Shown: positions 6,332-38,850, counted from the stretch's first letter. The stretch is DNA of 64,000 bases from a bacterium (GCA_965207065.1 OZ242260.1:3168001-3232000); one strand, 5' to 3'. Program-made: numbers and translations. Notes: generated by a model from the sequence alone, not told the origin.

Positions 6332-6414
6332 ACGACCCACCCACTCTCGGGCAGCGTATCTATGATTCCTGCTCATGAGTAATCCATTTAGGCTGCACGG
6401 TGGCCAGGTAACAA

Positions 6415-6584: not shown

Positions 6585-6626
6585 TACGATTTTCCTACAG
6601 CTTGTAGATTTTCGATAGCTGATTTC

Positions 6627-11364: not shown

Positions 11365-11530
11365 ACGATTCTCCTTTTTCATACTGTCTGCATGGTTGTG
11401 CTGCCGGCGTCTTGGCCTCGCGATGCGCCGCGCGGAGGCCGGGGAGAGAAGCCCGAGGGCGCGGGTGGAGGATCGAGAGAGAGGCTGCCGCGCCCGCATT
11501 CAGTCAACCCAAAACCAGGGAGGAACACCC

Positions 11531-22358: not shown

Positions 22359-22411
22359 GTGGTTTCCTTTCCGTTGATGATTTGTTTGCAGCTGTCGGTT
22401 GGAATGGAGCC

Positions 22412-24913
22412 TCAGGGCGCGCCCTCTTCGGCGACCCGCGCGACGGCCTCCTCGGTGGTGAGACCCTCGCTTTTCAGTTTCTCGATCGCCGCGAAGGCGG
22501 GCCCGCGCGATGAGTAGAGCGCCTGAGACCAGCGGTCCAGCGCGAGCCGCGCTACCCGCCAGCCGTCCGGGCCGTGCAGCACGAGTTCGGCGTGGCGTCC
22601 GTCCACGGTGGCCAGGCTCTTGAGCGCGCGCTCCATCCCGGGGTCGCAGTGGATGCGCTTCTCCTGCTTCAGGAGTTCGACGGACTCGTCCTTTTGCGCC
22701 AGGAATATCGTCCAGTCCGAGTTGTCCCAGGCCGCCCGCGCCGCGGGGTTGGCGTAGTAGTCGTTCACGCTCTGGGTGCCGGTGACGAGCGCGCCCCGGT
22801 ATTTTCTCGCGCGGCGGGCGGCGCCCTCCAAGAACGCCTTGCTGTCCTCGCCCGACAACAAATCCCAGGCCTCGTCGATCACGATAGCCTTGGGCCGCGT
22901 CCTCGGGCCGTGGTACATGCGCTGCGTGGCGAGGAATACGACCAGCATGAGCACGACGCCCTGGAGGTCGCCGCGTCCCTTGAGCTCGGCGAGTTCGAAC
23001 ACGGTGAGCGCGGCGTCCAGGTCCGGCGTCCCGCCGCCCTCGAAGAGGCGTCCCATCTCGCCGCCCGGACACCATGGGCCGAGCGCTACGCTCAGGTCGG
23101 ACGCGCGCCTGTCGCCCGCGGCCCCGAGTCCTTTCTGCACTCGGCCTAAGTCCGCGTCGTTTCCGGCTTCCTCCCAGGCGCGCGCGATGGCCTCGTCTAT
23201 CAGCGCCGCCTCGATGTCGTCGATCCGGCCGCGTCTCCTGCACATGCGGCCGACCACCGAGGCCAGCATGGCGAAGCACTCCTCCCGGTAGTCGCCGTCT
23301 CTCGCGGCGGTATCGGCGTCGATCATGGCGAAGGGGTTGAGCCTCGCGGGGTCCTTCCCGAAGGCGATGAAGGCGCCGCCGAGCGCTTCCGCCGTGTGCT
23401 GGAACGAGCGTCCGTCGTCGATGACTACGGCCTCTCCGCCCGCGCCCGCGATCCCCGCGACGAGTTCCTGCATCAACACGGATTTGCCCGATCCCGACTT
23501 GCCGGTCACGGCCACGTTGTAGTTCCCCGCTTCGTTCGCGAAAGGAGACCAGGGGGCGGGCTGCCCGCGTCTTCCCAGGAGAAGAAGCGCGGGCGGTGCG
23601 TCCGGCCGCGCCCTCTGGCCGCGCCACTCGCCGTGCACGGGCGCCAGGTTGACGGCGGATGAGGTGAGCAGCGTCTTCATCCGGCCCATCCGGGCGAGGT
23701 CGGCGTCGAGTCCGCCTGCTGCGACCATGGGCAGGCAGGAGAGCCAGGTAGGGAGGTGCGCGTAGCGCTCCGCCCCCAGCCGCCAGCCCTGTCCGTGGTA
23801 TATGGCGCGCACCGCCTGTTCGGCTTCGTCTATCGCGTCGAGCGGCGCGTAGACCGCCGTCATGTAGGAGGCCCGCACCAGGCGCTCGCCTTCCTTGAGC
23901 CGCTCGGTCACGAAGCGCCAGTCGCGCGCCTTCTCCGGAAGGCCGGGCAGGTAGCGCGCGATGCCCGTCCCCGCCTGCTGCGTCGCGCGGGCGGACTTCA
24001 AGAACGCGCGCTCTCCGTCGGCCGCCTCGCCCATCATCACGGTGAGCGCGGTCAGAACCGGTGCGCCGGGTTGCAGGAAATCTCGATAGAAATCCCCGAT
24101 CAGGGCATTGCCCCGCCAGCCGGGCCAGACTTCCGGATATGCGCGGGCGGAGAGCACGCGCACGGCAACGTCCGCCCCGTCCGGGTGGTGGAAGACCAGG
24201 CCCGCCGGCGCAACGCTCATCGCGCGTCCGGGCGCCGCGCACTGTAAGTGGATCGGATCGCGCGGCGACCAGCGCCTCCCGGGACGTACGAGTCCGCCGT
24301 CATGGACGCCTTCCGTATCGGGCGCGGCGAGCTCCGCTGCCAGCGAGAGCAGCGCGTCGGGCTCCATCCGCCGGGACCAGGTCCCGATCGAGGCGAACGC
24401 GCCCTCGATCGCGCGGCGGAAGCCGCCGAGCGCGGTCTCAGAAGCCGGTCCCGGACGCCCCGGCAGACTCGCCGCGAGGAACACCCGGCAGTCGTTCATC
24501 GTAAAGGTTGGCCCGCCCGCGTGGAGCGGCCGCCAGCCCGCTCCCGTGAACAGCGCCGAGCGGCGTTTCGCCATCACCGCCTGCAGGCCGCCCGCCGCCT
24601 CCCTCGGCCCGGACCATTCCGCGATCGCGGCCCCGTAGCGCGGGCTCGTCCAGTGGATCACCTGCACCACGGAACGATCGGGTGCGGAGTCCGCGAGCGT
24701 TCCCGCGAGGGCGTCCAGCGTCCCCTCGTCCACCCCCGCGAAAGGCGGGAGTTCCAGGACGAAGCCGAGGCTGCCTGCGTTCACGTAGAACTCGCCCGAC
24801 TCGTCCCAGGCGCGCCAGGGGAGGAGGTCCACGAGCGGGGCCGGGACGGCCGGGAGCGTCCAGGGCGCAAGCGCGTCGGCGCCGCCGAAGATGTCCTTCA
24901 GTCGCTCGATCAC
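22412..24913 (-). CDS. traC: F-type VirB4-like ATPase TraC
   Basis: NYNVAVTGKSGSGKS Walker A, IDEAW Walker B, ARRARKY; GTG 24913 overlaps the traV stop (GTGA). Confidence 0.95.
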   Translation of the reverse strand: MIERLKDIFGGADALAPWTLPAVPAPLVDLLPWRAWDESGEFYVNAGSLGFVLELPPFAGVDEGTLDALAGTLADSAPDRSVVQVIHWTSPRYGAAIAEWSGPREAAGGLQAVMAKRRSALFTGAGWRPLHAGGPTFTMNDCRVFLAASLPGRPGPASETALGGFRRAIEGAFASIGTWSRRMEPDALLSLAAELAAPDTEGVHDGGLVRPGRRWSPRDPIHLQCAAPGRAMSVAPAGLVFHHPDGADVAVRVLSARAYPEVWPGWRGNALIGDFYRDFLQPGAPVLTALTVMMGEAADGERAFLKSARATQQAGTGIARYLPGLPEKARDWRFVTERLKEGERLVRASYMTAVYAPLDAIDEAEQAVRAIYHGQGWRLGAERYAHLPTWLSCLPMVAAGGLDADLARMGRMKTLLTSSAVNLAPVHGEWRGQRARPDAPPALLLLGRRGQPAPWSPFANEAGNYNVAVTGKSGSGKSVLMQELVAGIAGAGGEAVVIDDGRSFQHTAEALGGAFIAFGKDPARLNPFAMIDADTAARDGDYREECFAMLASVVGRMCRRRGRIDDIEAALIDEAIARAWEEAGNDADLGRVQKGLGAAGDRRASDLSVALGPWCPGGEMGRLFEGGGTPDLDAALTVFELAELKGRGDLQGVVLMLVVFLATQRMYHGPRTRPKAIVIDEAWDLLSGEDSKAFLEGAARRARKYRGALVTGTQSVNDYYANPAARAAWDNSDWTIFLAQKDESVELLKQEKRIHCDPGMERALKSLATVDGRHAELVLHGPDGWRVARLALDRWSQALYSSRGPAFAAIEKLKSEGLTTEEAVARVAEEGAP

Positions 24914-25407
24914 GGCAGCCTCCAGCCCGCTGGCCTTATCACCGCGCGTACCCAATTGCCCTCGCGATATATTCCTTTCGCGTCCACGTAGGGTGCGATC
25001 CAGATCCGCGCGATCCGCTCCTTCGTACGGAGGTTTTCATTCGGCTCGGCCGGAGTCTCATCCGAAACCCGTGGAACGACCAGCGGCTCGGCCGTGGCCA
25101 CCTCCTCGTCCTCTTCGGCTGAAAAGAGTTCCGCGAACCAGGCGATGATGCCGCTCAGGAACGGGGTCCCGGTGGTTTCGATGGAACGAACCGGGGAGAG
25201 GGGAGTCGTTTCCCGTGCTTTTTCTGTTGTCGCAACGGCGGGGTCCGCCTCCGAAACGCTCGCGCACGCCGCCCCCTGCGCGATGGGGCATTGCCAGCTC
25301 TCGCCCACGTGGCTTCCCCCCGCACAGCCCGCGAGGAACATGACGGTCAACAGCATCGCCGGCAAATGAAATCTTCCTGTCGATGATGGATGGATATTCG
25401 TTCTCAT
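24910..25407 (-). CDS. traV: TraV lipoprotein
   Basis: Lipobox FLAG-C; WQC...CASV; RIWIAPYVDAKG. Confidence 0.9.
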   Translation of the reverse strand: MRTNIHPSSTGRFHLPAMLLTVMFLAGCAGGSHVGESWQCPIAQGAACASVSEADPAVATTEKARETTPLSPVRSIETTGTPFLSGIIAWFAELFSAEEDEEVATAEPLVVPRVSDETPAEPNENLRTKERIARIWIAPYVDAKGIYREGNWVRAVIRPAGWRLP

Positions 25408-26627
25408 CTGTTCCTCCCGTGTTTGTTGCTCTTCCTGTCTTCGCTCCCGTCGATCCGGGCGCCCTCGATGAACACGACCGTGACCCTCGTTCCCGTCTGG
25501 AGCTGGATCACCGGCTGGTACTGCTCGGCACGGCGGATCAGGTAGTCCGCCACCCGGCGGCCGGCCGATCCCGCGCCCGCTCCCAGGCCCGCGCGTCCCA
25601 GGTCGCTCAGGCTCGCCGCGTTCTCCGCCCCCGCCGTCCCGGCAGGCGCCTGGAGCACGTTGGCGGCGGTCTCGCCCACGCCCGACACCAGGCCCGCGAG
25701 AAAGGCCTTTTCCACGAGCGCACCCTCGCGGCTCACCACGGGACCCCGCACGCCGGCCTTGCCGCCGCCCGCCACGAAGCCCGAGACCTCGGTCTCGATC
25801 ACGGTCGCCGCCTCGGCGCCGGCGCAGGTCATGGTCTGAAGCCGCACGTAGACTTTCTCGGACGAGAGGTCCCCGTAGGCCGCGCCCGTCAGCGTGCAGC
25901 CCTCGACGTCGGCTTCCATCGCCGCTCCACCCGCCGCCGCACTCCGTGCCTTGCCCGTGAGTCGAAGCAGCACCGGGCGCGGGTCGCCCTGGGAGGAGAC
26001 GCCCGCCGAGGCGTCCACGCCCGCCAGAACCACCGCTTCCGCGTAGGCGCCCGCGGGCAGCCAGGAGGAAAGGGGGCGTGGGCCCGTATCAGGGGCGTTC
26101 GTACCCTCGACTCCCGTGCCGGTATGAAATTCCCGGATCATGGGCGCATTCGCCGTAGAGGCTCTCCCGCCGGGTGGCGTGCGATCCCCCTTCGCGCCCG
26201 GCGCAGGCCGCTTCGACCGGACGGGCGCGGCGGGGCGGGTCTCCAGTTTTTTGCGCAGTTCGTCGATCGCCGCCGCCTGGCGGTCGATCACCATCCGTCC
26301 GTCCGCCGCGCCCTTGTCGAGACGCGCCCTGAGCCGCGCGTTCTCCTCCTCCGAGCGCCGGTTCTTCGTCTCCATCTCGCGGAGCCGCGCCTCCATCTGT
26401 CCGATCCGGGCCTCCGATCGCCTGACCCAGACGGCTTCCGCAGACCCTGCGCCCGCGAGCTTCGCCCGGACCCCGCCCCGTGGCGGCGGCGCTTCGCTCC
26501 CTCCCGCCGAGAACCAGGCCGCGAAAGCGACGAGCACGGCAGCGGCCAGGCTTGATAACAGGAGCATCTGGCGACTCCTGATCTTCCGGCTCTCGGGGTC
26601 CATCGGGGTTTTCTCCTGCCCGCTCAT
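25404..26627 (-). CDS. traB: TraB (VirB10-like)
   Basis: TM plus coiled coil; LPAGAYAEAVVLAGVDA, GDLSSEKVYVR, GVRGPVVSREG, AEQYQPVIQ. Confidence 0.92.
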   Translation of the reverse strand: MSGQEKTPMDPESRKIRSRQMLLLSSLAAAVLVAFAAWFSAGGSEAPPPRGGVRAKLAGAGSAEAVWVRRSEARIGQMEARLREMETKNRRSEEENARLRARLDKGAADGRMVIDRQAAAIDELRKKLETRPAAPVRSKRPAPGAKGDRTPPGGRASTANAPMIREFHTGTGVEGTNAPDTGPRPLSSWLPAGAYAEAVVLAGVDASAGVSSQGDPRPVLLRLTGKARSAAAGGAAMEADVEGCTLTGAAYGDLSSEKVYVRLQTMTCAGAEAATVIETEVSGFVAGGGKAGVRGPVVSREGALVEKAFLAGLVSGVGETAANVLQAPAGTAGAENAASLSDLGRAGLGAGAGSAGRRVADYLIRRAEQYQPVIQLQTGTRVTVVFIEGARIDGSEDRKSNKHGRNR

Positions 26628-27370
26628 TGCGCGGCCCTCAATCGCGAGGTTTCGAGCACCGCCACGACGATTCGTCCGCCCGAGGGACCGCTCGCAGACT
26701 CCGCCGCCCAGAACGCGGCCGCGCCCGGTGCGAGGTGTTGCATCATGGCTTGGTTGTCGTCCCCAGGGATGGAATCCATCTCGTACACGCGCGCCGTGAA
26801 CCGCCGCCCGCGCCAGGTTTCCAGGAGCGCCGAGGCCTCTGAACGTGACGTTTCGGATGGCGTGTGAATCACATAGCCCGGCAAGACTTCACGCAGCGCC
26901 ACAGCGCGCACCAGCGCCACGAGCGCGCCCACGCGGCCTTCGCGGGGAGCGGGGCTTTCCGCCCGGGGCGCCGCGGCGGCGTTTCTGATCAGTATCTGCG
27001 CCGAGCCCCGCGCGGCGGTCCGGAGCCTCAGCCGGTAGGTGAAGCCCTTCGCCGTCCCGATGAAGAGCGTAAGCGCCTCCCGCGCAGGGGCGGTTGATTC
27101 CAGGGGCCGCAGGTAGAGGTCCCCGCGCGACTTGTCGTGTTCGAGCGCAAAACCGTCCGGCCCCCGGACCACGCGCGCCACCCGATCATCGGCCAGCGTT
27201 ACCCGGCTCACCGAACGGTCCGATATCTCGGCTTCGAGTTCCGCGCCGTCTGCGGCGACCAGTATCTGCATTGCGGACGCCGGCGCCGCCCAGATAAAGA
27301 TCGCGGCCAGGAGCAGCGTCCGAATCAGCGCGCGAGGGATGGCGTTCCCCCTTCTCGTCAATTGCGTCAT
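26624..27370 (-). CDS. traK: TraK secretin-like protein
   Basis: Signal peptide; ISDRSVSRV, GDLYLRP, TLFIGTAKGFTY; sits between traE and traB; start ATG 27370. Confidence 0.85.
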   Translation of the reverse strand: MTQLTRRGNAIPRALIRTLLLAAIFIWAAPASAMQILVAADGAELEAEISDRSVSRVTLADDRVARVVRGPDGFALEHDKSRGDLYLRPLESTAPAREALTLFIGTAKGFTYRLRLRTAARGSAQILIRNAAAAPRAESPAPREGRVGALVALVRAVALREVLPGYVIHTPSETSRSEASALLETWRGRRFTARVYEMDSIPGDDNQAMMQHLAPGAAAFWAAESASGPSGGRIVVAVLETSRLRAAQ

Positions 27371-27924
27371 TTCTTCTCCTCCAGTTCCTCGAAACGAAGC
27401 AGGCCGATCCGGCCCGCGTCCACGCGGAAGGACAACCGGTAGCGCTTCCGCTCGCGCGAGACCGGCTCGCGCCCCACCCAGGTCGCGAGTTCCCCGCCCA
27501 CGACGACCGTCAGCCTCCCCGGGTCCGCCTCGATCCGCCCGGGGTAGAACGCCGTCGAAAGGTCGCGCCGCGCCATGCGCCCGGCCTCGGCCGCGACCCA
27601 GGCGCCGATGGCGCCCCGCGCGGAGGCGTGGGCGAGCCGCGCCGCCGCTTCGCGGGCGTGCTCCGCGTTCTCGGGCGTGAGCGTAAGCAGCGTCACCGCC
27701 ACGGTCCGTCCCATGTCCTCGAGGTAGCGGAGCCCCGCCCGCCCGCCGCCGACCTCCCATGCCGGTCCCGCGACCGCGGGCACCAGCACCGTCATGCGCT
27801 CCACCGAGGCGAGGCCTATGCTCAGAGCGAGGTTGGCCAGGAGCGAGAGGCCGAGCAGCGCCGCCAGCGCCGCGCGCGCGTCCCGAACGCGCCTGCGCTC
27901 GGTTTCCATCAATTCCCGTCTCAT
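27367..27924 (-). CDS. traE: TraE
   Basis: TM segment, TVLVP, YLEDMG, LTLTPEN; position after traL. Confidence 0.87.
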   Translation of the reverse strand: MRRELMETERRRVRDARAALAALLGLSLLANLALSIGLASVERMTVLVPAVAGPAWEVGGGRAGLRYLEDMGRTVAVTLLTLTPENAEHAREAAARLAHASARGAIGAWVAAEAGRMARRDLSTAFYPGRIEADPGRLTVVVGGELATWVGREPVSRERKRYRLSFRVDAGRIGLLRFEELEEKK

Positions 27925-27934
27925 CAAAACCTCC

Positions 27935-28228
27935 TCATCCGATGAAGCGGCGCAGGTGGCTCGCCGGCGCGCCCCTGAACCCGAGCGCGAAACCGGGCAG
28001 GAACCAGTAGAGCGCGCAGATCGCGACATCCGCCCCGCCGCCCCGCTTGGCCCGGCGCAGGAGCGCCCAGCCCGCAAGTCCGGTCAACAACCCCGTCAGG
28101 AAGGCGTTCGCCGCCAGTCCCAGCAATGCCGGTCCCAGGAGCGCCGCCGCCTCGTCCAGGGTCCAGAACAGCCAGCGTTCCGGGTCGTCGAGGCGCGAGG
28201 GGATCGCGTGCTTGGCCTGATCGCTCAT
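27935..28228 (-). CDS. traL: TraL
   Basis: IPSRLDDPERWLFWTLDE, LYWFLP, PASHLRRFIG. Confidence 0.92.
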   Translation of the reverse strand: MSDQAKHAIPSRLDDPERWLFWTLDEAAALLGPALLGLAANAFLTGLLTGLAGWALLRRAKRGGGADVAICALYWFLPGFALGFRGAPASHLRRFIG

Positions 28229-28237
28229 ACGTCCCCC

Positions 28238-28537
28238 TCATATGATCGCCGTGCCGACGAGCCCGGTGACGATGCCGGTGCCCGCGCCCGCCGCGATGCC
28301 CACGCCGACGGCGCCCGCGAGCTGGGCTGCGTTGAAGCGAAGCACCGAACCCACAAGGGCGGCGCCCACGGCGAGCGCTGCCGCGAGCTGTCCGCCCGTG
28401 CCCGAGACCATCCCGGTCACCGTGCCGAGCGGACCCGAGAACGTCGTGTCCGTCGTCGCCCAGGCGGCGTCGAATCCCCACAGCGCCCAGAGGAGCGCGG
28501 CGAGGGCGCACCTGCTCAGGAAAGAAACTCTCTTCAT
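28238..28537 (-). CDS. traA: Conjugative pilin (TraA/TrhA-like)
   Basis: 99 aa with signal ending AWA and two hydrophobic Gly/Ala-rich helices; directly upstream of traL; GGAGGG RBS. Confidence 0.8.
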   Translation of the reverse strand: MKRVSFLSRCALAALLWALWGFDAAWATTDTTFSGPLGTVTGMVSGTGGQLAAALAVGAALVGSVLRFNAAQLAGAVGVGIAAGAGTGIVTGLVGTAII

Positions 28538-28752
28538 CGCGCGACCCTCCCTCCGTCGTCGGACGTCGATTTCCGCCGACGCGCCGAGGCCCACGCCTCG
28601 AGGTCTGCGAGCAGGTAGCGCACCCGGGCGCCGAAGCGGTGGAAGACCGGCCCGTCGCCGGTCACGCGGTAGCGGTCCAGCGTCCTCGGCGAAAGGCCGA
28701 GCCACTCCGCCGCCTGCCGCGTGCTCAGGTAGTTCCTGGCGTTCTCGTTCAT
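28534..28752 (-). CDS. HTH_17 (excisionase/AlpA-like) DNA-binding protein
   Basis: YLSTRQAAEWLGLSPRTLDRYRVTGDGPVF..GARVRY...DLEAW; AAAGGAG RBS; overlaps the traA start. Confidence 0.88.
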   Translation of the reverse strand: MNENARNYLSTRQAAEWLGLSPRTLDRYRVTGDGPVFHRFGARVRYLLADLEAWASARRRKSTSDDGGRVAR

Positions 28753-29179
28753 GCGAATCTCTCCTTTTTCGTGATCGGCCCCGCCGTCCGGGGCCCTTGT
28801 GTTGAATGCGCCGGGCGCCTCGTCCCGGCGAGTGGTTTCGGATCCGGGCGTCACAAGCCGCGAAAGAAGTCGACGCCGCATCCCGTTCGTCTTTCCAATG
28901 TCGTTTGTCCGGGTAAGTGAAATCTTCATGGCGAGCGAACATAAAGCAAAAACAACAGCGCTTCAATCATCAAGGTTTGTGCTCCAGTAACGTTCTCACC
29001 GGGTTCGCGCCCGCCTCCACGAAACGCTGCGCAGTGATGCGACAATAAAAAAATTCAGGTTTCCCCCGCGAAGGAGGGAAGGAATGGAGAGCGGTAGGAC
29101 TTGCTGCGGAAAGCGTTGGAAAATCGACCGGGAACGTGCGAACGGGCGCGTCCGTTCTGGACCAGGCTCAATAATCTCC

Positions 29180-29893
29180 CTACCGCCCCTTCTTCTTCCG
29201 GGCGGCTCTCTCCTCGGACAGGGAAGTCCACCTCCGGGCGGAGGCCCACGCTTCGAGGTCTTCGAGGAGGTAGCGCACCCGTGCGCCGACGCGGCGGAAC
29301 TCCGGCCCCTCGCCGCTCAGGCGGTAGCGAGCGATCGTCTTGGGCGAGAGTCCCAGCCAGGCGGCCGCCTCCCGCGTGTCGAGACCCCGCGCGGCGGGCG
29401 GTTCTTCCAAGGCTGCGGGCGGGTCTCCCCTGGCGTCCCACGTCCCGTCGAAGGGGTCGTCAAGGTCCGCGAGCCTCTCGCGAACCGCGGGGATCTCCCC
29501 TTCCATCGCGTTGGCCGCCATCCAGGCGCGCACCCGGTCGAAGCTCCGAAGGTAGGGCGAGACGCCCCGGCGCAGGTTCCCCACGAAGGCGGGGTTCCTC
29601 ACCGCCTCCTCGCCCAGTATCGTGACCTTCGTCCCGCTCACTTCGATGAACACCTCGATCTCGGCCCGGAGGAGCGGTCCCAGGGGCGGGTACCCCATGA
29701 ACGCGAGCACCCGGTCCGCCGTGTCGACGCGCAGGGGCCGCCCCCGCGCCTGCAGGCCCACGAAGCCGGGAATGCCCAGCGCGCCCACCCCGAAGCGCCT
29801 CGCGCTCATCCCGCGGCGCTCGCGCCAGAGCGCGATGCTCCGGCGCATCCGCTCGTCCAGGGGCAAGGCGGTATCGTCGCCGAACGCGGTCAC
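29180..29893 (-). CDS. Multi-domain DNA-binding protein: two Cro-like repeats plus C-terminal HTH_17
   Basis: Repeats GMSARRFGVGALGIPGFV..DRVLAFM and GTKVTILGEEAVRNPAFV..DRVRAWM; C-terminal domain 40/57 identical to the 28534-28752 product. Confidence 0.75.
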   Translation of the reverse strand: MTAFGDDTALPLDERMRRSIALWRERRGMSARRFGVGALGIPGFVGLQARGRPLRVDTADRVLAFMGYPPLGPLLRAEIEVFIEVSGTKVTILGEEAVRNPAFVGNLRRGVSPYLRSFDRVRAWMAANAMEGEIPAVRERLADLDDPFDGTWDARGDPPAALEEPPAARGLDTREAAAWLGLSPKTIARYRLSGEGPEFRRVGARVRYLLEDLEAWASARRWTSLSEERAARKKKGR

Positions 29894-29903
29894 GGCGCGC
29901 CCA

Positions 29904-31373
29904 TCAGAACAGCCGCCGCAACCCGACCCGGAACTGGAACAGATTCCGGTCGTAGAGCGGGATGGTCGAATCGGTCCGCGACCAGTCCAGCATCAGCACC
30001 GGCTGGTAGCCCTCCCAGGAGAGCTTGCGGTGGGAGAGCGTCAGGCCGGCGCTCAGCGTCTCGTCCTCGCGCCGGACGAGGAACGCCGCATCCTCCTCGT
30101 CGAACCGGAGGCCGCTCATCCCGAGCCGGACCGACCCGCTCCAGTCCTCCCCGATATCCGCCGCGTATTCGAGGTTTAGCCCACGCGAGCGCCAGCTCTG
30201 GCTGCGCAGGTCCGCGCTCGCGCGCGAGATCGTCCCGCGCGCCGTCAGCCGGCCGGGCCCGGCGCGGCGCGAGACGGAGAGCTCCAGGGACCGCCCGGCG
30301 GGGTCGGCCTCATCGGCCCGGTCGTCGTAGCGCGTGACCCAGAGGCGGGGCGAGACGCCCACGCGCCAGTCCGCGTCCAGCACCTGGTCCACCCGGACAC
30401 CGCCCCACCAGGTCGTCGACTCGCCGGATCCGCCCTGCATGCGCCGCTCCACCCCGACGTCCGCGCCGACCCGCCCGGGCCGGGGACGGCCGCCGAGCGG
30501 CGCCGCGTAGCCGACCCGCGGCCCGGCCGAGAGGCTGAGCCAGGTCCGGTCGTACTCGCTCGCGCCGATCGCCGTGTTGCGCGCCGCAGCCGCGCGCGCC
30601 TCGAACTGCACGCGCCCGTCCGCCGTCACCGTCTCCCGCCAGCCCACGCGCGCGCCCGTGCGCGCCACCCAGGCGGCGACCGGCCGCTCGTTCAGCCGGA
30701 ACTCCAGGTTGCCGAAGGCGGGTATCTGCACCGTATCGACCTCGGCGGCGTTGTTCACGTTGCCGTCGCGCCAGAATCCCAGATCGAGGTCGACCCGCAG
30801 GCGCTGGCGGGCGAGGATGCGGGAGAGGAACACTTCCACCTTGCGCCGCGCGTCGGCGGGGAGTTCCGGCGCGCGGCGCGCTTCGCGGAACAGCGCCCCC
30901 GCCTCGTCGTCCCGCCTCAGGGCGAACAGCGCCAGCGCGCGGTCGAGCCGGACCCGCAGGTTGTCCGGCCGCTCCTCGGCGAGCCGCGCCAGCACCCGCT
31001 CGGCCTGGGCGTGGCGCCCGCCCGCCAGCAAGGCCTGGGCGATCCCGAAGCGGAGATCCGCGTCGTCCGCGCCCTCGGGCAGCGCCTCCATGGCCCCCAT
31101 GAGCACCGCGAAGGCCGCGACGGGCTCTCCCGCCACTATCAGGCGCTCGGCCTGCGCCAGGGCCGCCTCGACGGGGTAGACTTGCGTTTCTTTCGGTGAT
31201 TTTTCCGGGGGAGACTCCGCCGCCTGCGCGCCGCTCCCCGGCCCGGCGCAGAAAAGCGCGACGGCGAGCGCCGCCGCGAACGCGGCGTACAACGCCTGGC
31301 GGCGCGGCAGGGCGGGGGCGCTTAAAAAGTCACCAGAGCACCGGAATGGGTTTCCCGACGTCATACGCGCCAT
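29904..31373 (-). CDS. Surface lipoprotein assembly modifier (Slam / T11SS, TPR + DUF560-like beta-barrel)
   Basis: Signal peptide; TPR helices (RPDNLRVRLDRALALF); DGNVNNA motif at the barrel start; amphipathic strands; RTDSTIPLYDRN; terminal RRLF. Start uncertain (31364/31373/31448). Confidence 0.82.
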   Translation of the reverse strand: MARMTSGNPFRCSGDFLSAPALPRRQALYAAFAAALAVALFCAGPGSGAQAAESPPEKSPKETQVYPVEAALAQAERLIVAGEPVAAFAVLMGAMEALPEGADDADLRFGIAQALLAGGRHAQAERVLARLAEERPDNLRVRLDRALALFALRRDDEAGALFREARRAPELPADARRKVEVFLSRILARQRLRVDLDLGFWRDGNVNNAAEVDTVQIPAFGNLEFRLNERPVAAWVARTGARVGWRETVTADGRVQFEARAAAARNTAIGASEYDRTWLSLSAGPRVGYAAPLGGRPRPGRVGADVGVERRMQGGSGESTTWWGGVRVDQVLDADWRVGVSPRLWVTRYDDRADEADPAGRSLELSVSRRAGPGRLTARGTISRASADLRSQSWRSRGLNLEYAADIGEDWSGSVRLGMSGLRFDEEDAAFLVRREDETLSAGLTLSHRKLSWEGYQPVLMLDWSRTDSTIPLYDRNLFQFRVGLRRLF

Positions 31374-31449
31374 CAGACCACTCCCTCCCCGAGGGGGTTG
31401 TTGAAAACCCTCAAGGGAGGAGGGTATTCCGATCATCGAATCGTTCACC

Positions 31450-31530
31450 GCAGCGGACAGGCCCCCGCGCCTGTCCGAGGCCGCGACCTGTCCCTACAAT
31501 TGGCGGGGCGGTTTTGTTCGCCTGTTCCGG
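31450..31530 (+). repeat. GTAG-type REP-like palindromic element (GGACAGG...CCTGTCC...CCCTAC)
   Basis: Close copy at 33981-34062; related units at 35393, 38581, 38806, 42413, 55776 and 63993. Confidence 0.7.
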
Positions 31531-31578
31531 CGGCGCAATCGCTCTCTCCGGTCGGGTTTGACAAGTGAAACGCTTCCC

Positions 31579-33300
31579 TTACTTGGTGGCGACGAAGCCG
31601 CCCGTAAATTTCGAGGCCCTGTCGCTCCCGTTGATCTCGAACACCGCGCCGACCGTGTCGACGATGTCCGTGTTGGCGTCGTTGTCGTTGTCCTGCTTGC
31701 GGAACTGTCCCTGGATCTTGCGCGTGGTGGTGGTTTCCGAAAAGCTGCCGCCCGAGACCGTCAGTCCGGTCCATGACTGGTTCGTGAAGGTGACCGGCCC
31801 GAAACCATCATCATTTGAGTGATCTGATCCTTGGGTAAGCGTCGTGGCTTTGAGGTTGGTGAGCGACACGGCCGCCGTTACCGCGCCCCCACTGAGCGTG
31901 GCGGTCACGCTCGCGTCGCCGCCGATCAACTCTCCCCGAACCGCGATGTCGTTCACGTCGTCCGCGGCCGCGATGACCTTGCCTGTGAACGTGGCCGTCA
32001 CGTCCGGCTGGGCCTGGGTTCCCTGGACTTGCAGGTATGCGTCGGCGCTGAAGAACTCGGTATAGGGCTGGCCATTCTCTACAGCAAATTCCCACAGGTC
32101 GAGTTTTCCTCCTTTGGCAGCGGTTCCGCCCACGTAATTGGAGGTGCCGGGACCCAGCTTGTCGATTATCAATATTACTCTTGTCTTGCTGCTGTCAGTC
32201 CCCGAAGGGTAGGCATAGCCGTACCTTTTGAAATACACGTTCTGGGTGTTAGCCCAAGCAAGCACGGCAATTCTGGCGACAACGACCTCTCGAACCTGGA
32301 AATTCGGCGCCGTGTTGGGAGTGTCGCCGAGTTGGCCCATATCGTTCGACCACAAGCCGAAGCCGTTCATGTTGACCACGCTGCCCCACGTGTATCCCCC
32401 AAAGCCTGGTGGTACGCTGATCGAAATCGACTTGGTGGATGGCAGAGGGGGCAAGTCGGGGTTCGCCCAGCCCCGCCGGCCCAGCCCCCAGCTCGTCGAG
32501 ATGATGTTCGCACTGGTGGAACCGGACAGCTTCCCGCCCGCCTTGGTGCAGATCGCGCCGGCCGCCGCGCAGTCCGCCGTCGCCGGCAGGCTTATCGCGA
32601 GGGGATTGAGCGAGGACGGGCGCACCCGCACCGTCACGCTGCCGTTCTCGCCCCGCACCGTGCGCTTCACGTCCACCACCCGGCCGCCCGTCACCTGGAG
32701 CGCCTGCTTGAGCGCCCCCAGCTTCAGGCCGTCGAAATCCTCGCTGAACCGTATCTCGAAGCTCAGCAGCGTGCCGTCGTGCTTGTCCGGCAACCCGTGG
32801 AACGATGCCGTCAGCGGCGTCGGCGCGGAAACCGGCTGCGGCTCCGGCGCCGATACCGGCTCCGGCTCCGGCTCGGGAACAGGCGGCGTGACGGGCTCCG
32901 GCAGGGAGGCCGTGGCAGGCCCCGCAACCGTCAGCGAGCCGCCCCCGGCGATGCCGTCGGCCAGCGTGATCGTCAGGTCCCCGGACGAGGAGGGCCGCAC
33001 CCTGACCGTCACGCCGCCGTTCTCGCCCCGCACCGTGCGCTTCACGTCCACCAACCGCCCGCCCGTCACCTGGAGCGCCCGCTTGAGCGCCCCCAGCCGC
33101 AGGCCGTCGAAGTCCTCGCTGAAGCGTATCTCGAAGACGAACAGCTTCTTGCCGTTATGCGCCTCCGGCGCCCCGTGGAACGACGCCGTCAGCGCGGCGG
33201 CCACCCCCGGCAGGGCCGCTACCGAGAGGGCGAGAACCAGAAATGCCGCCGCGCAGACGCCCGGCGGAGACAAAAAGGCATAGTTTTTTCTATTCTTCAT
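31579..33300 (-). CDS. Secreted protein with duplicated N-terminal domain, Pro/Glu linker and C-terminal TbpB-like barrel; probable Slam cargo
   Basis: Sec signal; two ~68-aa repeats (LTASFHG...FEIRFSEDFDGL...VTVRVRPSS); PEPEPEP linker; C-terminal TATFTGKVIA...IQGQF...VGAVF...GGFVATK; adjacent to the Slam gene; GGGAGG RBS before ATG 33300. Confidence 0.7.
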   Translation of the reverse strand: MKNRKNYAFLSPPGVCAAAFLVLALSVAALPGVAAALTASFHGAPEAHNGKKLFVFEIRFSEDFDGLRLGALKRALQVTGGRLVDVKRTVRGENGGVTVRVRPSSSGDLTITLADGIAGGGSLTVAGPATASLPEPVTPPVPEPEPEPVSAPEPQPVSAPTPLTASFHGLPDKHDGTLLSFEIRFSEDFDGLKLGALKQALQVTGGRVVDVKRTVRGENGSVTVRVRPSSLNPLAISLPATADCAAAGAICTKAGGKLSGSTSANIISTSWGLGRRGWANPDLPPLPSTKSISISVPPGFGGYTWGSVVNMNGFGLWSNDMGQLGDTPNTAPNFQVREVVVARIAVLAWANTQNVYFKRYGYAYPSGTDSSKTRVILIIDKLGPGTSNYVGGTAAKGGKLDLWEFAVENGQPYTEFFSADAYLQVQGTQAQPDVTATFTGKVIAAADDVNDIAVRGELIGGDASVTATLSGGAVTAAVSLTNLKATTLTQGSDHSNDDGFGPVTFTNQSWTGLTVSGGSFSETTTTRKIQGQFRKQDNDNDANTDIVDTVGAVFEINGSDRASKFTGGFVATK

Positions 33301-33546
33301 GTGCGCTTCCTCCCTTGCGCTTGCACGAGTTCCACGGCGGACTTCGCCGGCTTGCTGATATGCGTATGGACCCAGCATCGCCCCTCGGACGGGTGACGAT
33401 GGTGATCGATTCCGGGGGGGTATTCCCCCGTCAAGAACCGGCCCTTATTGGATTTATTTTCGGGTTTTTTTGGGTTTAGATGTGGTTCTGCGAGTCTGTC
33501 TTCTGGTTTTTGGGGGTCTAGACGCGGTTCAGAGAGACGGTTCCGC

Positions 33547-33674
33547 CTGTGGGTCTGTGGGTCTGTGGGTCTGTGGGTCTGTGGGTCTGTGGGTCTGTGG
33601 GTCTGTGGGTCTGTGGGTCTGTGGGTCTGTGGGTCTGTGGGTCTGTGGGTCTGTGGGTCTGTGGGTCTGTGGGT
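33547..33674 (+). repeat. Perfect tandem repeat (CTGTGGGT) x16
   Basis: 128 bp, 16 identical 8-bp units, intergenic. Confidence 0.97.
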
Positions 33675-33980
33675 GAGGCCTCAGTCTAGCAGGACGCGCT
33701 CGGCCCGCCAAAGTGGCGAAGGGACGCGCGGCGGCGATGCTCTCTGTCCGGCCTCCCCGGACTAGCGGGGCGCCGGTGGCTAGGGTTTCCAGGTTCGGTT
33801 TCAATTTCGCGTTCCGCTTTCCATGACTTCGAGTACGATAAACACAGGTATATGAAGCCGCATATACACAATATATTACCTATATATATTACATCAAACA
33901 AATAACGGAATTCAACCACGAAATGTGGCGGGTTTTCGGGGCGAGGGGGGAGGCGTCGCCTTTGCCCCCGGCGAGGGGGG

Positions 33981-34062: not shown

Positions 34063-34303
34063 GTGTCGGGAGCGCCCCTTCGGCAGGCTCAGGAATGCAG
34101 TTCCTCCTTTCTCAGTCGGAACTGACCCTCGATGCGCGGCTTCGCCGCCACCGGTTGCGACCGGCATCCGGCCGCGGCGGAACCTTTACGGAATCTTTAC
34201 CCCCCTCCGGCGCAATCGCTGGTAGCATCCCCGCACTGTCGAAATCTTCCACGGGGTGCGGACTTCACCGGGCGGGCGGCGGCGTTCCGTCGAGAGAGGG
34301 GTG

Positions 34304-34687
34304 ATGGAGCGATACTCGGATGAAAAGGTCCGCCGAGTGGTGGCCGGCATCATACCGACCCTGGATTCGAAACACACGACCGAAGCCTTCTTCCAGGCGG
34401 CGGCGATGATGGTGTTGAAACGGCTCGAGAAGAAGATCGGCATCGTCGTCCTGGACACGTCCACGCTTTCGATGACGCGGCAGTACGGCGCGCCGGACAT
34501 CATCCTCTGCCGGGCCGGGGGGGAGTATGTCGCCATCGACCTCAAGGCGGGGAAGAACGACCTTTCCACGCGTCAGCAGCGGTTCCGGGAGCGTGTGATC
34601 AGAGCCGGCGGCAAGTACTTCGTGTGCCGGACGCTCCGCAACGTGATTGACGCCGCGGTGAGCGGCGACCTGGACCCGGACGAGTAA
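34304..34687 (+). CDS. VRR-NUC / PD-(D/E)xK nuclease-domain protein
   Basis: GAPDII...YVAIDLKAGKNDLSTRQQRF...AGGKYFVCR pattern. Confidence 0.8.
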   Translation: MERYSDEKVRRVVAGIIPTLDSKHTTEAFFQAAAMMVLKRLEKKIGIVVLDTSTLSMTRQYGAPDIILCRAGGEYVAIDLKAGKNDLSTRQQRFRERVIRAGGKYFVCRTLRNVIDAAVSGDLDPDE

Positions 34688-35444
34688 TTCCCTTCTCGGG
34701 GGACGCCTCTTTCCCGGCGGAAACGATTGACGGTCGCGTTACACTTTCGTCCCGGCCGTGATGGCAGCACCCGAGCAGCGTTAGTTTGGTGTCTGTCCAA
34801 CCGTAACTGGTTTTTCCTGATGCTCTCTGCACCATCAATGTCGACACGATTTTCAGGCTCCTTCGGTGCGTGGACGGCATTCCGACATCGATTTTCATCA
34901 CGTAGAGGGCAACTACAATCCGGATCCGGTCGGCGCTATGACCTATTCCGTCACGGGATGAGCGAACGTGTACGACGATTGTAACAGTTCGGCGGAGGGG
35001 TGATAACTTAGTCGATGCCGGAGACATTCGTAGGAATTGCGCGGTGTAGCCAGCTTCAGCAGGTGCTTTCCTTTTCTTTATCACCCCACGACCGAACGAA
35101 TACACTTAACCCGACCGGAAACTGCCTGCATGCGCTGGAGTTGAAATGAATCCGCTTTCGGTATGATTACAGACTGCGAAAGACGGGTTTTCGGTGAGAT
35201 TGAAAAATTAAATATAATTATATATATCAATAAGATACGAGTATTTCATGATTATTGAGAATGCTCTGGCGTCTCTAAAAGGAGCGCTTGTATCGAAGGG
35301 CGCTCTCGATGTGCCCCGTTTGACCCACCCTCCTCGGTCGGGTCAAACCCTCGATACGGCCCTTTACGCCTGCCCGGGATGAGGGGGAGTCCGTAGGGAC
35401 AGGTCGCGACCTGTGCTCATCCTCTCATCGACCGGGAAAAACCA

Positions 35445-35586: not shown

Positions 35587-35894
35587 GCGAAACACGCGCG
35601 CTGCAGGAACAACCCCTCCTCGGGGTAGTCCTGCCCCTCGTGGTTGTCCATTTTCAGTGTGGGCGCGGCCTGGGCAGGCAAAGGGGCCCGCCCCTGCGTC
35701 TTCATCCCGCTCATTGTTCCAGGCCCGGCCCTGAGCTAACCTGCCAGGGAACCATCCGCTTGAGGCCGGTCGAACCAAAGGCGGAATGCCGAAAGCATGT
35801 CAGAGTGCGCCCCGAAAGGAACGCATCTTAGGCTTGGCGCAATCTGCGTGCGGGGTAGCGGATCTCAAACCGAAAACAATCGGAGGAACGTACG

Positions 35895-36833
35895 ATGCTG
35901 AGCAGAAGGAACCGGTTTTCACTTCTTGCAGCAGTCGTGTCGTTCCTGATGATGTTGTCCGGTTGTGGAGGTGGCGGTCAGGGCGCCGGGTCCGTGATTC
36001 TGGAGACGAATGAAATTGAAGGCGTTTTGAGCGACTTGAGGAGCGATGCGAAATCTCCCGCGCTTGCTCGATTTGGTGCTGATCCTCCTCCTCCGGACGT
36101 CCCGACGTGTCAGGCGCTTCTATTGGGATGTGAAGGAGGCCTCGGGCCGGCTCACTACAGGGCGGTTGGCAAGTTTGACTTTTCCGGCTTTCGTTTCACG
36201 GAACGTCGCCGCGGCGTGTCTTTGGCGGAAAGGAGGCGAGTTTCAGGAGGAGGAGGCGATACGACCAGCTACCGTGCCTTGGCCGGCTGGATCGACCATA
36301 GTTTTTTCCTTGTCGAGACTCCCGGAATCGGGGTGTCTGAAGATAACCGGGTTTTCGCAAATTACTATGGCGCCTATTCGATAGGAAACGTAATAGATTC
36401 GAATCCGGATGTTTTGGCTGGCGCCGCCGCGACGTGGTCTGGGATTATGGTTGGTATCCGTATTGCCGAGCCGGACAGTTTCGTCAAAGGCGACGCCACA
36501 ATCACGGTTTCCAATCCGCGAAGAAATGCTGATCTGCTGGTCGATGTCGAGTTCAGCAATATGAAAGACGAACAAACGGGTGCGAATTTCGATGATGTTT
36601 CCTGGGAAGGTCTGGCGCTCAAAGACGGTTCGTTCGGAGTCGTTCCTGTCAGCGGCGACGAGGCGGATGCCAGCCGGCATCCTGCGAGGAGAGGGGTATC
36701 CGGCCGGTTCTATGGTCAAAACCATGAGGAAGTGGGCGGCTTGTTCGGTTTCACGACGGCTGTTGCTGAAAATGACGGGGGCATTGGAGATATTCATGAT
36801 GTTTCCGGCGCATTTGGAGCCAGGCGCGACTAG
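35895..36833 (+). CDS. Lipoprotein with C-terminal TbpB-like barrel; homologue of 1715-2518
   Basis: GGAGG RBS; lipobox LSG-C then GGGG; LAGWIDHSFF, ATWSGIMVG, GRFYGQNHEEVGGLF, GAFGARR. Confidence 0.78.
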   Translation: MLSRRNRFSLLAAVVSFLMMLSGCGGGGQGAGSVILETNEIEGVLSDLRSDAKSPALARFGADPPPPDVPTCQALLLGCEGGLGPAHYRAVGKFDFSGFRFTERRRGVSLAERRRVSGGGGDTTSYRALAGWIDHSFFLVETPGIGVSEDNRVFANYYGAYSIGNVIDSNPDVLAGAAATWSGIMVGIRIAEPDSFVKGDATITVSNPRRNADLLVDVEFSNMKDEQTGANFDDVSWEGLALKDGSFGVVPVSGDEADASRHPARRGVSGRFYGQNHEEVGGLFGFTTAVAENDGGIGDIHDVSGAFGARRD

Positions 36834-37125
36834 TCCGGCCGCTGCGTGAAGGTGAAGGTATCTTGTTTTCCATTGCCGGAAATCATTCGGATTCATGGCG
36901 GCGAAGCCGCGTTTGCCGTAGGGGCAACCCCTCCTCGGAGCTGCTCCACTATTCGCGAAAGTGGGCCGCCTGCGAGTGGTCCCCACCAGGATCGCCGTTC
37001 TCTTGTTCATCGAACGAGATAGACCACCGTCATTCCGGCGCATACCGGAATGACGAACAAAACAGGACTCCCTCGTAGTGGGCCGTTCTTGCTTGTGAGT
37101 GATCCTCATTCACGAACTCGCGGGC

Positions 37126-37153
37126 TTGACATCGGCATGATATTCCCTATATT
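37126..37153 (+). promoter_or_regulatory. Putative sigma70 promoter of the RES TA operon
   Basis: TTGACA-N16-TATATT in an AT-rich patch upstream of 37198. Confidence 0.5.
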
Positions 37154-37197
37154 TATTAATCTAATGGATATCACGCCTCGTCCTGGAGGATGTCCGC

Positions 37198-37872
37198 ATG
37201 ACTGAAGCGTTGTCCCTGATCGATCTGACGCCCGGCGAAATCGACCGGCTGCCCGCCAGTCTCCGGAGGAGGATCGGTGGTTCCTCGCGCTCGGAGGATT
37301 CCCCGCCCGGCGCCTGGCTCCTCGTGGGCGAACGCACAGAGGGGCGGGCGGAACTGCTAGAACGGGCGCTCGAAATGCTGCCAACACTTGCGGCTGAACG
37401 AGGATATCGGTTATCCGAGGCGAATATCGAGAAAATACTCGACGTCATTCTCTCGGACGCGCCCCGCCCCCGGATCGAGAATGAACTCGAAATCGACAAT
37501 GCCAGGCTGCGCTCCCGGTATATTCAGGAAACGCCCCTTCTGACCGGGGCCGAGGTTCGCGCCGCTTCGGGCTTGAAGCCGCGCAACAAGAGCGAGCCCG
37601 CTTCCCGCTGGAAAAGGGAGGGCAAGCTGTTCGCAGTGCGCCGCTCGGGGATTGACCACTATCCGGCCTTTCAGTTCGCAGACGGCTCGCCGCGGCCGGC
37701 CATCAAGGCGATTCTCGCCGCTTTGCCGAAGGACATGACCGGTTGGCAAATCGCCATGTGGTTCGCATCCGGTAACGGCTGGCTGGACGGCGCAGAACCG
37801 CAGGAACGTCTCTCCGATCCGGACGCCGTCGTCGAAGCGGCCTGCAGTCTGGCTGATCCGGCGGTCGGGTAG
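37198..37872 (+). CDS. Putative antitoxin of a RES-domain TA pair
   Basis: RWKREGKLFAV..YPAFQF...WFASGNGWLDGAEP resembles RES-associated antitoxin C-termini; directly upstream of the RES gene. Confidence 0.7.
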   Translation: MTEALSLIDLTPGEIDRLPASLRRRIGGSSRSEDSPPGAWLLVGERTEGRAELLERALEMLPTLAAERGYRLSEANIEKILDVILSDAPRPRIENELEIDNARLRSRYIQETPLLTGAEVRAASGLKPRNKSEPASRWKREGKLFAVRRSGIDHYPAFQFADGSPRPAIKAILAALPKDMTGWQIAMWFASGNGWLDGAEPQERLSDPDAVVEAACSLADPAVG

Positions 37873-37886
37873 GGCATTTCTCCTGG

Positions 37887-38522
37887 ATGTCGATCCGAAT
37901 ACCCCCGTCTGCGCTCGCAGAGCCTACCCTCGTTTCACTCGAAGCCGGTGCGCTCGTGCACCGGGTGCACGACAGGAATTACGGCGCGGTCGACTTTAAC
38001 CCATGCAGGGGTTCTCCCACGCGCTTCGCTCCCGTCTACGATGCGGCGGGTGAGTGCGTTCCGTCTCTTTACGCGGCCGACACGCTGGAGGCGGCGATCC
38101 ATGAAACGATCTTCCACGATGTTCCCGTAACGGCAAAACGAAAGACCGTTCCCAGGACGCTCGCCCAAAGCCGAGCGCACGCCCGGCTGGAAATCCTGCG
38201 GGATTTGCGCCTCGCCTCCCTGCGCGGCCCCGACCTCAAAAGGTGGCGCATCGGACGCAGTTCGTTGATCGGCGCCTCACCCAAGCTCTATACCGAGACC
38301 GCCCGGTGGGCGAGCGCCATTCACCACCAGTTTCCCGAAGTCCATGGCCTGCTCTGGACCTCGAACCAGTGCGATCCGGACAGTGCATACCTGTTCTTCG
38401 GAGACCGCGTCGCGCCGGAGGATTTCCGAATCCTGAACGCGCGCGATGGATTGTTCGACACGACGTTTCTCTCGGACGTTCGCCAGGCGGGCCGAAGATG
38501 CGGAATCACCATCACGGTGTAG
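37887..38522 (+). CDS. RES-domain toxin (NAD+ phosphorylase family)
   Basis: HRVH, TRF, LYAADTLEAAIHETIFHD, GLLWTS motifs (R-E-S). Confidence 0.85.
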   Translation: MSIRIPPSALAEPTLVSLEAGALVHRVHDRNYGAVDFNPCRGSPTRFAPVYDAAGECVPSLYAADTLEAAIHETIFHDVPVTAKRKTVPRTLAQSRAHARLEILRDLRLASLRGPDLKRWRIGRSSLIGASPKLYTETARWASAIHHQFPEVHGLLWTSNQCDPDSAYLFFGDRVAPEDFRILNARDGLFDTTFLSDVRQAGRRCGITITV

Positions 38523-38580
38523 GTCGACTTTTTCTTTTCTTGTCGTTTGGCCTGCCGAGGAGAGAGGGTTATCGGTTCGC

Positions 38581-38850
38581 CGTAGCGGACAGGCCCCTGC
38601 GCCTGTCCGTGCTCCTGCGCCTGTCCGAGGCCTCCGCGCCTGTCCTGACGATGGGCAATCACGGGTATAGGCATATCCCATCTACGGACGGCCACGGGGG
38701 GCCGCCCCTACAATAGATTCGATGGTCACATGCGTAGGGGCGGACCGACGCGTCCGCCTTGCGTCGTTCGCTCGTCAACGTATTTGTAGGGGCTGGATGT
38801 TCAGCGTAGGGACAGGCCCCTGTGCCTGTCCGGGGTCGTGACCTGTCCAA
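38581..38850. repeat. Cluster of GTAG-type REP-like palindromes
   Basis: Several GTAG(C/G)GGACAGG / CCTGTCC and GGCCGCCCCTAC units, similar to 55776-55915. Confidence 0.7.

Follow-up and report, generated by a model that had tools for sequence, protein, structure and literature searches.

A 64,000-nucleotide stretch of a bacterial genome (hereafter the window; positions 3,168,001-3,232,000 of a single-contig genome of 4.48 Mb and 59.5% GC) carries, at the head of an F-type conjugative transfer (tra) operon, the gene of a Slam-type outer-membrane protein of a type 11 secretion system (T11SS), next to a gene whose product has the modelled fold of known Slam cargo. We conclude that this display cassette is probably an accessory passenger of the F-type conjugative element, which lies within a composite island of ~79 kb, and not a component of mating. 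A sequence-only reading of this DNA had proposed either a mobile surface-display kit or a Slam cargo that helps mating. The former is the best reading because of the identity of Slam, the fold of its neighbour and the position of the pair inside a stretch that travels with tra. The genes concerned are the following.

31579-33300, minus strand: predicted T11SS cargo, 573 aa from MKNRKN, with a Sec-type signal, two immunoglobulin (Ig)-like domains and a C-terminal handle plus eight-stranded barrel.
29904-31376, minus strand: Slam/T11SS outer-membrane protein, 490 aa from MARMTSG, with a predicted signal peptide, tetratricopeptide repeat (TPR) region and DUF560 barrel.
29180-29893, minus strand: hth237, a 237-aa regulator with a C-terminal helix-turn-helix (HTH) domain (HTH_17, 42.9 bits, residues 171-220).
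28534-28929, minus strand: hth131, a 131-codon open reading frame (ORF; HTH_17, 36.7 bits), the apparent N-truncated remnant of a tra-head regulator.
28238-28537, minus strand: traA-like pilin gene, placed before traL and encoding a signal peptide and a hydrophobic Gly/Ala-rich sequence.
6627-28228, minus strand: F-type transfer genes assigned with Pfam, namely traL, E, K, B, V and C, an S26 peptidase gene, traU, N, F, H and G, and the genes for TraD and a TrwC-type relaxase-helicase.

Almost all real genes from ~6.6 kb to 33.4 kb of the window lie on the minus strand, in the order cargo, Slam, hth237, hth131 and traA-L-E-K-B-V-C through to traD-traI, so that the gene order and co-orientation described by the sequence-only reading are borne out by the ORF coordinates. 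The Slam stop and the hth237 start are separated by 10 bp (29894-29903). GC content in this tract is ~64-73%, above the genome mean, and GC at third codon positions (GC3) is 0.82-0.91, which is typical of real genes here.

The product of the gene at 29904 is predicted to be a Slam (DUF560) protein, and the profile search proposed by the sequence-only reading as a check came out positive: the protein scored 49.1 bits against Pfam family PF04575 (SlipAM; cut-off 22, E 7.6e-13), and 48.1 bits in a whole-genome PF04575 search. A TPR_19 match (31.6 bits, cut-off 25) covers residues 106-162; the TPR_Slam model gave 21.9 bits, under its cut-off of 35.2. The ORF is open to 31448 (514 codons), and the probable start at 31376 gives 490 aa, the length of P0026, the protein cluster of a second cassette copy (see below) that is filed under this genome. 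Among 5.8 billion proteins we found 41 relatives at E<=1e-5, nearly all from metagenome assemblies; PF04575 is precomputed in 37 of them, and the remaining four are short fragments (291-393 aa). A phmmer search of PDB sequences with Slam returned nothing at E<=0.01. Native full-length Slam proteins occur in 21 of 22 other genomes of the host genus (PF04575), and the type found in the window (slam514) was matched in one of 60 other genomes (22 of the same genus), as a 48-aa fragment only. This near-absence, together with the GC content of the cassette and tra (~70% vs 59.5% for the genome), suggests that the cassette is of foreign origin.

The cargo ORF runs from 33378 to 31579 (599 codons), with a probable start at 33300. 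Family models did not recognize the protein: the whole sequence matched no Pfam family at E<=0.01 and no NCBIfam family (PF01298 TbpB_B_D and NF041636 slam_lipo included), the C-terminal 199 or 299 aa gave no TbpB_B_D match at E<=10, and a profile of 25 cargo relatives found chance-level matches only among PDB sequences. Structure prediction gave a different picture. An AF2 model of the last 310 aa, built on the 25 relatives (pLDDT 76.9, pTM 0.80), had as its best PDB rows in Foldseek fHbp, the LbpB N-lobe, the NHBA C-domain, hemophilin and TbpB, with weak E values (1.6e-3 to 2e-2). In VIA-align, all 50 listed rows were known Slam cargo (Z 10.2-13.9, model residues 25-310, that is, the C-terminal 285 residues); among them were fHbp 8bk2_A (Z 13.9, 161 residues, root-mean-square deviation (rmsd) 4.7), NHBA-C 6cuj_B (Z 13.6, 137 residues, rmsd 2.8), hemophilin 7re4_E (12.7), HphA 8gm3_A (12.3), the TbpB C-lobe 3ve2_B (11.5) and HpuA 5ee4_A (10.8). 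In addition, hhalign of the cargo family profile with tbpb312, a TbpB_B_D lipoprotein encoded at 35895-36833 of the window, gave, for this canonical lipoprotein, a probability of 88% (E 2.9e-6) with the barrel strands aligned, and just 29% with tbpb275, the lipoprotein encoded at 1691-2518. The TbpB-type barrel claimed by the sequence-only reading, with its handle, was thus recovered by modelling, fold comparison and hhalign, and was missed by the family HMM. The modelled fold is that of known Slam cargo, recognizable by fold only, and, since family HMMs miss it, surveys of cargo based on PF01298 would undercount such proteins.

The N-terminal half of the cargo consists of two repeats of ~80-90 residues with Pro-rich linkers between them, modelled (pLDDT 72.6) as two Ig-like sandwiches, which matched GH2 Ig-like domains best (Z 9.0), followed by invasin/InvD (8.2-8.3); values of 8-9 are common for this fold and carry no specific functional meaning. 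As read from the sequence, the signal peptide is Sec-type and has no lipobox Cys; distant relatives that share the C-terminal domain (P0016-P0024) have LSAC or LTAC lipoboxes. Cargo and Slam were adjacent in 4/4 places where both were seen (the window, genome 1192564-1196090 and the metagenome loci L015 and L016), and in four further assemblies the longest contigs with cargo and Slam matches were equal in size, which suggests a cognate pair. Between copies, the Ig-like domains are 89-100% identical and the handle 53-75%; the window and the second genome copy have identities of 1.00 and 0.93 in the first and second Ig-like domains, 0.53 in the handle and 0.67 in the barrel.

These features suggest how the pair would work. 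The cargo would cross the inner membrane via Sec, and Slam, with its TPR and DUF560 parts, would recognize the C-terminal handle and barrel and move its neighbour across the outer membrane. Lacking a lipobox, the cargo would probably be released or loosely held at the surface, where it may present a stalk of two conserved Ig-like domains and a rapidly diverging handle, probably ligand-binding. As in Neisseria Slam1/Slam2 systems (TbpB, LbpB, fHbp, HpuA), the cargo gene adjoins that of a DUF560 outer-membrane protein whose N-terminal part has TPRs, and the handle and eight-stranded barrel are common to both. Unlike in Neisseria, the cargo has no lipobox, carries two N-terminal Ig-like domains and goes undetected by PF01298; there is no TonB-dependent receptor partner, the host is environmental and the pair lies on a conjugative element.

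The likeness to hemophilin/HphA-HsmA of Acinetobacter baumannii and Haemophilus (a predicted non-lipidated soluble cargo, as in secreted hemophores, an adjoining Slam and fold Z of 12.1-12.7) could mean that the pair serves nutrient capture, as a hemophore or metal-binding protein that passes its ligand to an unlinked receptor. We consider this unlikely. Four TonB-dependent receptors (PF00593) were matched in the genome and none in the window, as the sequence-only reading had noted for this region; hemophilin is equalled or outscored by fHbp and NHBA, neither of which binds nutrients; and the hemophilin-type chains that matched do not have the two Ig-like domains that form the stalk here. In the hemO cluster, as described in PMC10483418, the hemophilin gene stands with genes for a TonB-dependent receptor and a haem oxygenase, both of which are absent here.

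We then considered the transfer genes themselves. TraL, E, K, B, V, C, U, N, F, H and G, TraD and the TrwC-type relaxase all scored above Pfam cut-offs. The traA-like gene had no Pfam match and is 75% identical to the gene in the same position of a second tra cluster of this genome. These assignments point to an F-type (MPF-F) transfer system with a TrwC relaxase, in which traA is identified by position and sequence character only. TraN is indeed very short, as the sequence-only reading had stated: with 356 aa, it covers no more than positions 378-560 of the TraN_Ftype model, which has 572. On the F plasmid, TraN acts in mating-pair stabilization and TraT in surface exclusion; as there, surface or outer-membrane proteins are predicted within the tra region here, and TraN is present.

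Could the Slam cargo, then, be a mating component, an adhesin that stabilizes donor-recipient pairs and makes up for the missing N-terminal two thirds of F TraN? Its gene stands with Slam directly upstream of tra in the same orientation, and tandem Ig-like domains are found in invasin/InvD-type adhesins, albeit at Z values in the range common for the fold. However, the second tra cluster (tra2; genome 2342990-2365170), which is collinear with window 6630-28800 (81.5% nucleotide identity), lacks both Slam and cargo although its TraN is just as short (73% identical over a 358-residue tblastn alignment), so that the short TraN of this family does not appear to depend on the cassette. tra2 is headed directly by a 245-aa HTH_17 gene, upstream of which are divergent ParB-like and recombinase genes. 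Since, in addition, the cassette is found elsewhere beside integrases or a HipA-like gene without tra, and its junction with tra looks like a secondary recombination (both below), the comparative data argue against a mating role, which we regard as very unlikely.

The same conclusion came from other genomes. Among the 51 genomes sampled from the class, 11 (this one included) have TraE. At each of the 12 TraE loci of the genus outside this genome, a match to the hth237 family lies ~1.2 kb upstream (a C-terminal fragment only at G018:C298 and G013:C2:571009), and none of the 12 has PF04575 nearby; the closest PF04575 on the same contig as TraE is ~174 kb away (G022), and in G018 and G019 the two are on separate contigs. 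Two loci read directly (L031 of G022 and L032 of G044) have the order hth-traA-L-E-K-B-V-C, with no Slam or cargo match at E<=1e-5 in the fetched flanks, ~8 kb upstream. A second family of the class (G042, G044) gave no slam514 match at E<=1e-10 in a search with the protein query only, not PF04575. The synteny survey suggested by the sequence-only reading thus found no conserved Slam gene: by these comparisons, Slam-tra coupling is not a family trait, and, unlike TraN and TraT as conserved tra members, the cassette is absent from sister clusters. The sequence-only reading would have been given up if related tra clusters never carry the Slam gene and the gene lies outside the transferable unit; with the related clusters lacking the cassette, the former is close to what we found, and the latter is not.

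The variable handle raises another alternative, that the cargo is a surface factor for identity or exclusion, specific to the element, which would mark cells in which the element is already present and whose handle would define exclusion groups. The handle is 75% identical between the window and L015 and 53% between the window and the second copy, compared with 94-99% for the tra proteins of L015 (80% for TraV), and no TraT/TraS-type gene was assigned among the cluster ORFs scanned, in a search that was not exhaustive. Nevertheless, related tra clusters do without the cassette, such variability is equally expected of any exposed binding protein, and we know of no exclusion system that uses a T11SS. 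We therefore hold this alternative to be highly improbable.

How the cassette came to be joined to tra can be read from the two regulators. The sequence-only reading had placed an HTH regulator before an HTH_17 gene; the order is correct, but both genes match HTH_17 and are therefore two paralogues. hth237 is complete and belongs to the family found at the head of tra operons in this class (by tblastn, 48% identity to the regulator heading tra2; ~80% to copies in G002 and G013). Genes of this type at ~80% identity are multi-copy in these two genomes of the genus (G002, 14 matches; G013, 13). In a tblastn search of 72,556 PLSDB plasmids, hth237 matched through its generic HTH_17 part only (158 records, none covering 80% of the query). 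hth131, with a probable start (MNENARNY) at 28752 that would give ~72 aa, keeps the last ~87 codons, HTH_17 included, of a gene that has 245 aa in tra2. DNA homology to tra2 ends at 28800, inside hth131, and that to the second cassette copy at 29178, where hth237 stops; the 378 bp between them had no other match in the genome (E<=1e-20, alignments of at least 150 bp). These end points suggest that the tra operon's own head regulator was cut and that the intact paralogue came with the cassette. The truncated HTH gene, thus, appears to mark a recombination junction: the cassette would have been joined to tra by recombination within the HTH_17 head regulator gene, which would have left the intact hth237 behind Slam and an N-truncated regulator before traA.

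The region upstream of the cargo has a length-variable repeat and a candidate promoter.

33547-33674, minus strand: octanucleotide tandem repeat ACCCACAG (coding strand); TRF, period 8, 16.0 copies, 100% matches.
33870-33897, minus strand: sigma-70-like site TTGATG-16-TATATT in AT-rich DNA upstream of the repeat, from a consensus scan; candidate cargo promoter.

The repeat lies ~245 bp upstream of the cargo start codon, between the AT-rich promoter-like site and the cargo, and its perfect 8-bp x 16 array ends at 33674, the coordinate at which the sequence-only reading had closed its interval. The consensus scan of the region found 6 sigma-70-like sites against 0.6 expected in shuffled sequence, a number that says nothing on function. 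Homologous upstream regions have 13 (genome 1192310), 7 (genome 1144436) and 2 (L015) copies of the octamer, compared with 16 in the window. The repeat probably modulates cargo expression and is a candidate contingency locus for phase or level variation.

The cassette might instead be wired into conjugation: hth237 would perhaps be co-transcribed from the cargo promoter, display and transfer would switch together, and the handle would serve as a mating or exclusion tag. The original regulator is N-truncated, the intact hth237 lies just behind Slam, and the octamer varies among the four upstream regions, all of which this proposal draws on; we find it quite unlikely.

The accessory-passenger reading raises the question of what moves with the cassette. 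Two further features bear on this.

34256-34687, plus strand: small VRR-NUC-like gene, divergent from the cargo (VRR_NUC 22.1 bits, under the cut-off of 23.8).
35100-35110, no strand: end of homology with the metagenome contig L015 (L015 128-1581 against window 35107-33659, 94%), taken provisionally as the right boundary of the mobile unit that the two share.

In the 15 kb compared, L015, an independent contig of 72 kb, has the VRR-NUC gene, cargo (83% identical), Slam (94%), hth237 (99%), hth131 and traA-traC in the order of the window. Its homology runs from traC through the cassette and the VRR-NUC gene to 35107, 420 bp beyond the latter, and L015 1-127 is unrelated. The cassette thus falls within the transferable unit, as the sequence-only reading required, and probably travels with tra, filling what would be a short stretch between the operon head and the edge of the element. 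The VRR-NUC-like gene appears to travel with the cassette; copies 94% identical stand beside it at genome 1197004-1197426 and in L015. The junction was also bridged, in whole or in part, by contigs from public runs of three further studies, compared over window 22000-33540. These contigs are short and come from mixed organisms, and bridging records alone were used: X8 record 28 spans 28140-30005 (43 differences), X4 records 20 and 21 span 28271-29540 and 29512-31093, and X14 record 3 spans 28881-29384. Recovery of the same junction, at ~93-98% identity, in L015 and three public runs indicates that this element circulates; since these are near-identical copies of one element, they speak for circulation and not for evolutionary conservation.

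In G001 and G007, tsaD (window 38996) adjoins a gene that is found here at window position -40409, indicating that ~79 kb was inserted, and a pair of tyrosine integrase genes lies at the left edge of the island (genome 3128845-3130528). Window 35697-38616, which holds tbpb312, a 224-aa gene and a RES-domain gene, likewise lies beside tsaD in G011, as does 37104-38522 in G008; its identity equals that of the core flank (86-88%), which suggests that it is older than the tra element. By this comparison the island is composite. Searches for direct repeats flanking the 35107 edge found none.

A mosaic of this kind, in a genome with many tra fragments and 54 PF00589 integrase matches, and with a truncated gene at the junction, could also have brought the cassette and tra together as a meaningless product of accretion, with the cassette decaying. 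We judge this very improbable, as neither the cargo frame nor the Slam frame is broken in the window, the second genome copy or L015, the junction is kept in L015 and the three runs, and the GC3 values are those of real genes.

The cassette also occurs away from tra. Scans for Slam gave three loci from 103 candidate stretches of genome contigs and four from 137 of metagenome contigs; among the seven, L018 is a 19-residue match, L014 an 86-residue fragment and L017 a duplicate of L013. The second copy in this genome (1192046-1196811; 87% DNA identity to window 29178-33932) consists of the upstream region and the genes for cargo (589 aa), Slam (490 aa) and hth237; what follows is a Slam fragment and a VRR-NUC gene, both reversed, instead of tra genes. 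In L013, the gene of a 61% identical Slam precedes a 232-aa ORF and two tyrosine integrase genes; L016 has cargo (71%) and Slam (77%) with the same downstream sequence as L013; and in L012 Slam (71%) precedes a HipA-like gene. No match to Slam was found in PLSDB at E<=1e-5 (tblastn).

Several observations weigh against the view of the cassette as a mere passenger of a mobile element. The cassette shares the orientation of tra and directly precedes it, with Slam 10 bp from the sole intact tra-head-type regulator, and a consensus scan, albeit a weak one, found no minus-strand terminator-like site between the Slam stop and traA; such a placement argues for some functional tie to transfer. Because traD and traI fragments lie 40-45 kb from the second copy, this tra-less copy may be a decayed relative of the same arrangement and not an independent context. 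A wider Slam-tra association may exist, as the context was read for few of the ~40 Slam relatives. The PF04575 match is limited to profile positions 120-288 of 288, that is, the C-terminal 169. Finally, no att-type direct or inverted repeats were found between the left edge of the island and the 35107 junction at k>=11, or within the island at k=13.

As in Xenorhabdus NilB/NilC and the cluster 1 T11SS, the pair described here is a horizontally acquired one tied to mobile DNA. Grossman et al. 2025 report that cluster 1 T11SS co-occur with transposases and read this as a signature of mobile islands (PMC12282271). Unlike the statistical link to transposases and tRNA-related genes described in that text, the present pair is fused to the head of an F-type tra operon; a complete T11SS pair inside a conjugative element would be a concrete vehicle for the horizontal spread earlier inferred from transposase co-occurrence. 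The main text of PMC12282271 does not mention conjugation, apart from an antibody 'conjug' entry, the accessible text of PMC8406197 (2021 mBio) has no mention of 'conjug', 'mobile' or 'island', and in that of PMC10483418 surface lipoprotein assembly and the word 'conjugative' come up in unrelated contexts. Like the sequence-only reading, which knew of no described Slam-tra coupling, we found none in the main texts so covered; supplements might list tra-type neighbour domains. A cargo that combines a Sec-type signal, a pair of Ig-like domains and a lobe of the TbpB type, with no TonB-receptor partner, adds to the known architectures, and the repeat of variable length before this surface-protein gene could provide phase or level variation in an environmental bacterium. 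For conjugation biology the outcome is mostly negative.

Other surface-protein genes were seen in the same genome, where TbpB_B_D gave up to 16 matches (E<=0.1), including 7 above the cut-off. Two of the matched proteins are classical lipoproteins, with LSAC and LSGC lipoboxes, whose genes flank the tra region (1691-2518 and 35895-36833). The first belongs to a pair at window 1-2679 that joins a LuxR/PAS regulator gene to the gene of a Slam-type lipoprotein of low GC (GC3 0.39; LSAC lipobox, TbpB_B_D 30.4 bits). This pair is duplicated at genome 1321914-1324595 with 98.9% identity and is followed by a trypsin-like peptidase gene with a Sel1 repeat (2665-4035). At L004 121-1929 (genome ~3121205-3123013, window ~-46.8 to -45.0 kb), a 603-aa ORF ends in a TbpB_B_D barrel (34.7 bits), within a 6.8-kb stretch missing from that site in G001, G007 and G008, and may be another island-borne Slam-type cargo. 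In L023 (G002:C1:3862000-3879000), an hth237-type gene (8112-8831) lies directly upstream of a 1644-aa autotransporter gene (2466-7400), whose passenger holds a 'TA(S/A)F..P..HDG' domain, the same as in the cargo Ig-like repeats. L024 and L026 share a homologous segment of L023, and L025, L027 and L028 are without a cargo-domain match; the arrangement looks like a repeated regulator-plus-surface-protein cassette.

We also noted several mobile or repeated sequences. The motif GTAACNGTTCGGCG(G/A)..GGTGAT occurs at five genome sites (window 34981-35006 and genome 939380, 1962087, 2259518 and 2289409). In L015 a second copy of GTAACNGTTCGGCG begins exactly at the end of the window homology, and the motif may be a recombination site of these elements; the five sites did not resolve into element ends. 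The traD-traG intergenic stretch (window 11434-11882) recurs at four other genome sites with 69-72% identity and may be an oriT or an element-associated repeat. At four places (genome 34559-36935, 902899-905275, 1151174-1153550 and 2323717-2326093) three tyrosine recombinase genes lie side by side, with scores that are identical from set to set; these sets resemble recombinase-in-trio elements, and two of them interrupt traI-like fragments. Within the 64-kb window there are no tRNA genes, and toxin-antitoxin-like pairs lie on both sides of tra: AbiEi/AbiEii (4729-6331) and the 224-aa gene with the RES-domain gene (37198-38522), the latter pair being kept beside tsaD in G011 and G008. Dispersed repeats of 150-230 bp with many genome copies (74-94% identity), at window 42035-42261, 42366-42539, 48045-48273 and 55738-55970, resemble repetitive extragenic palindromic (REP) or miniature inverted-repeat transposable (MITE) elements.

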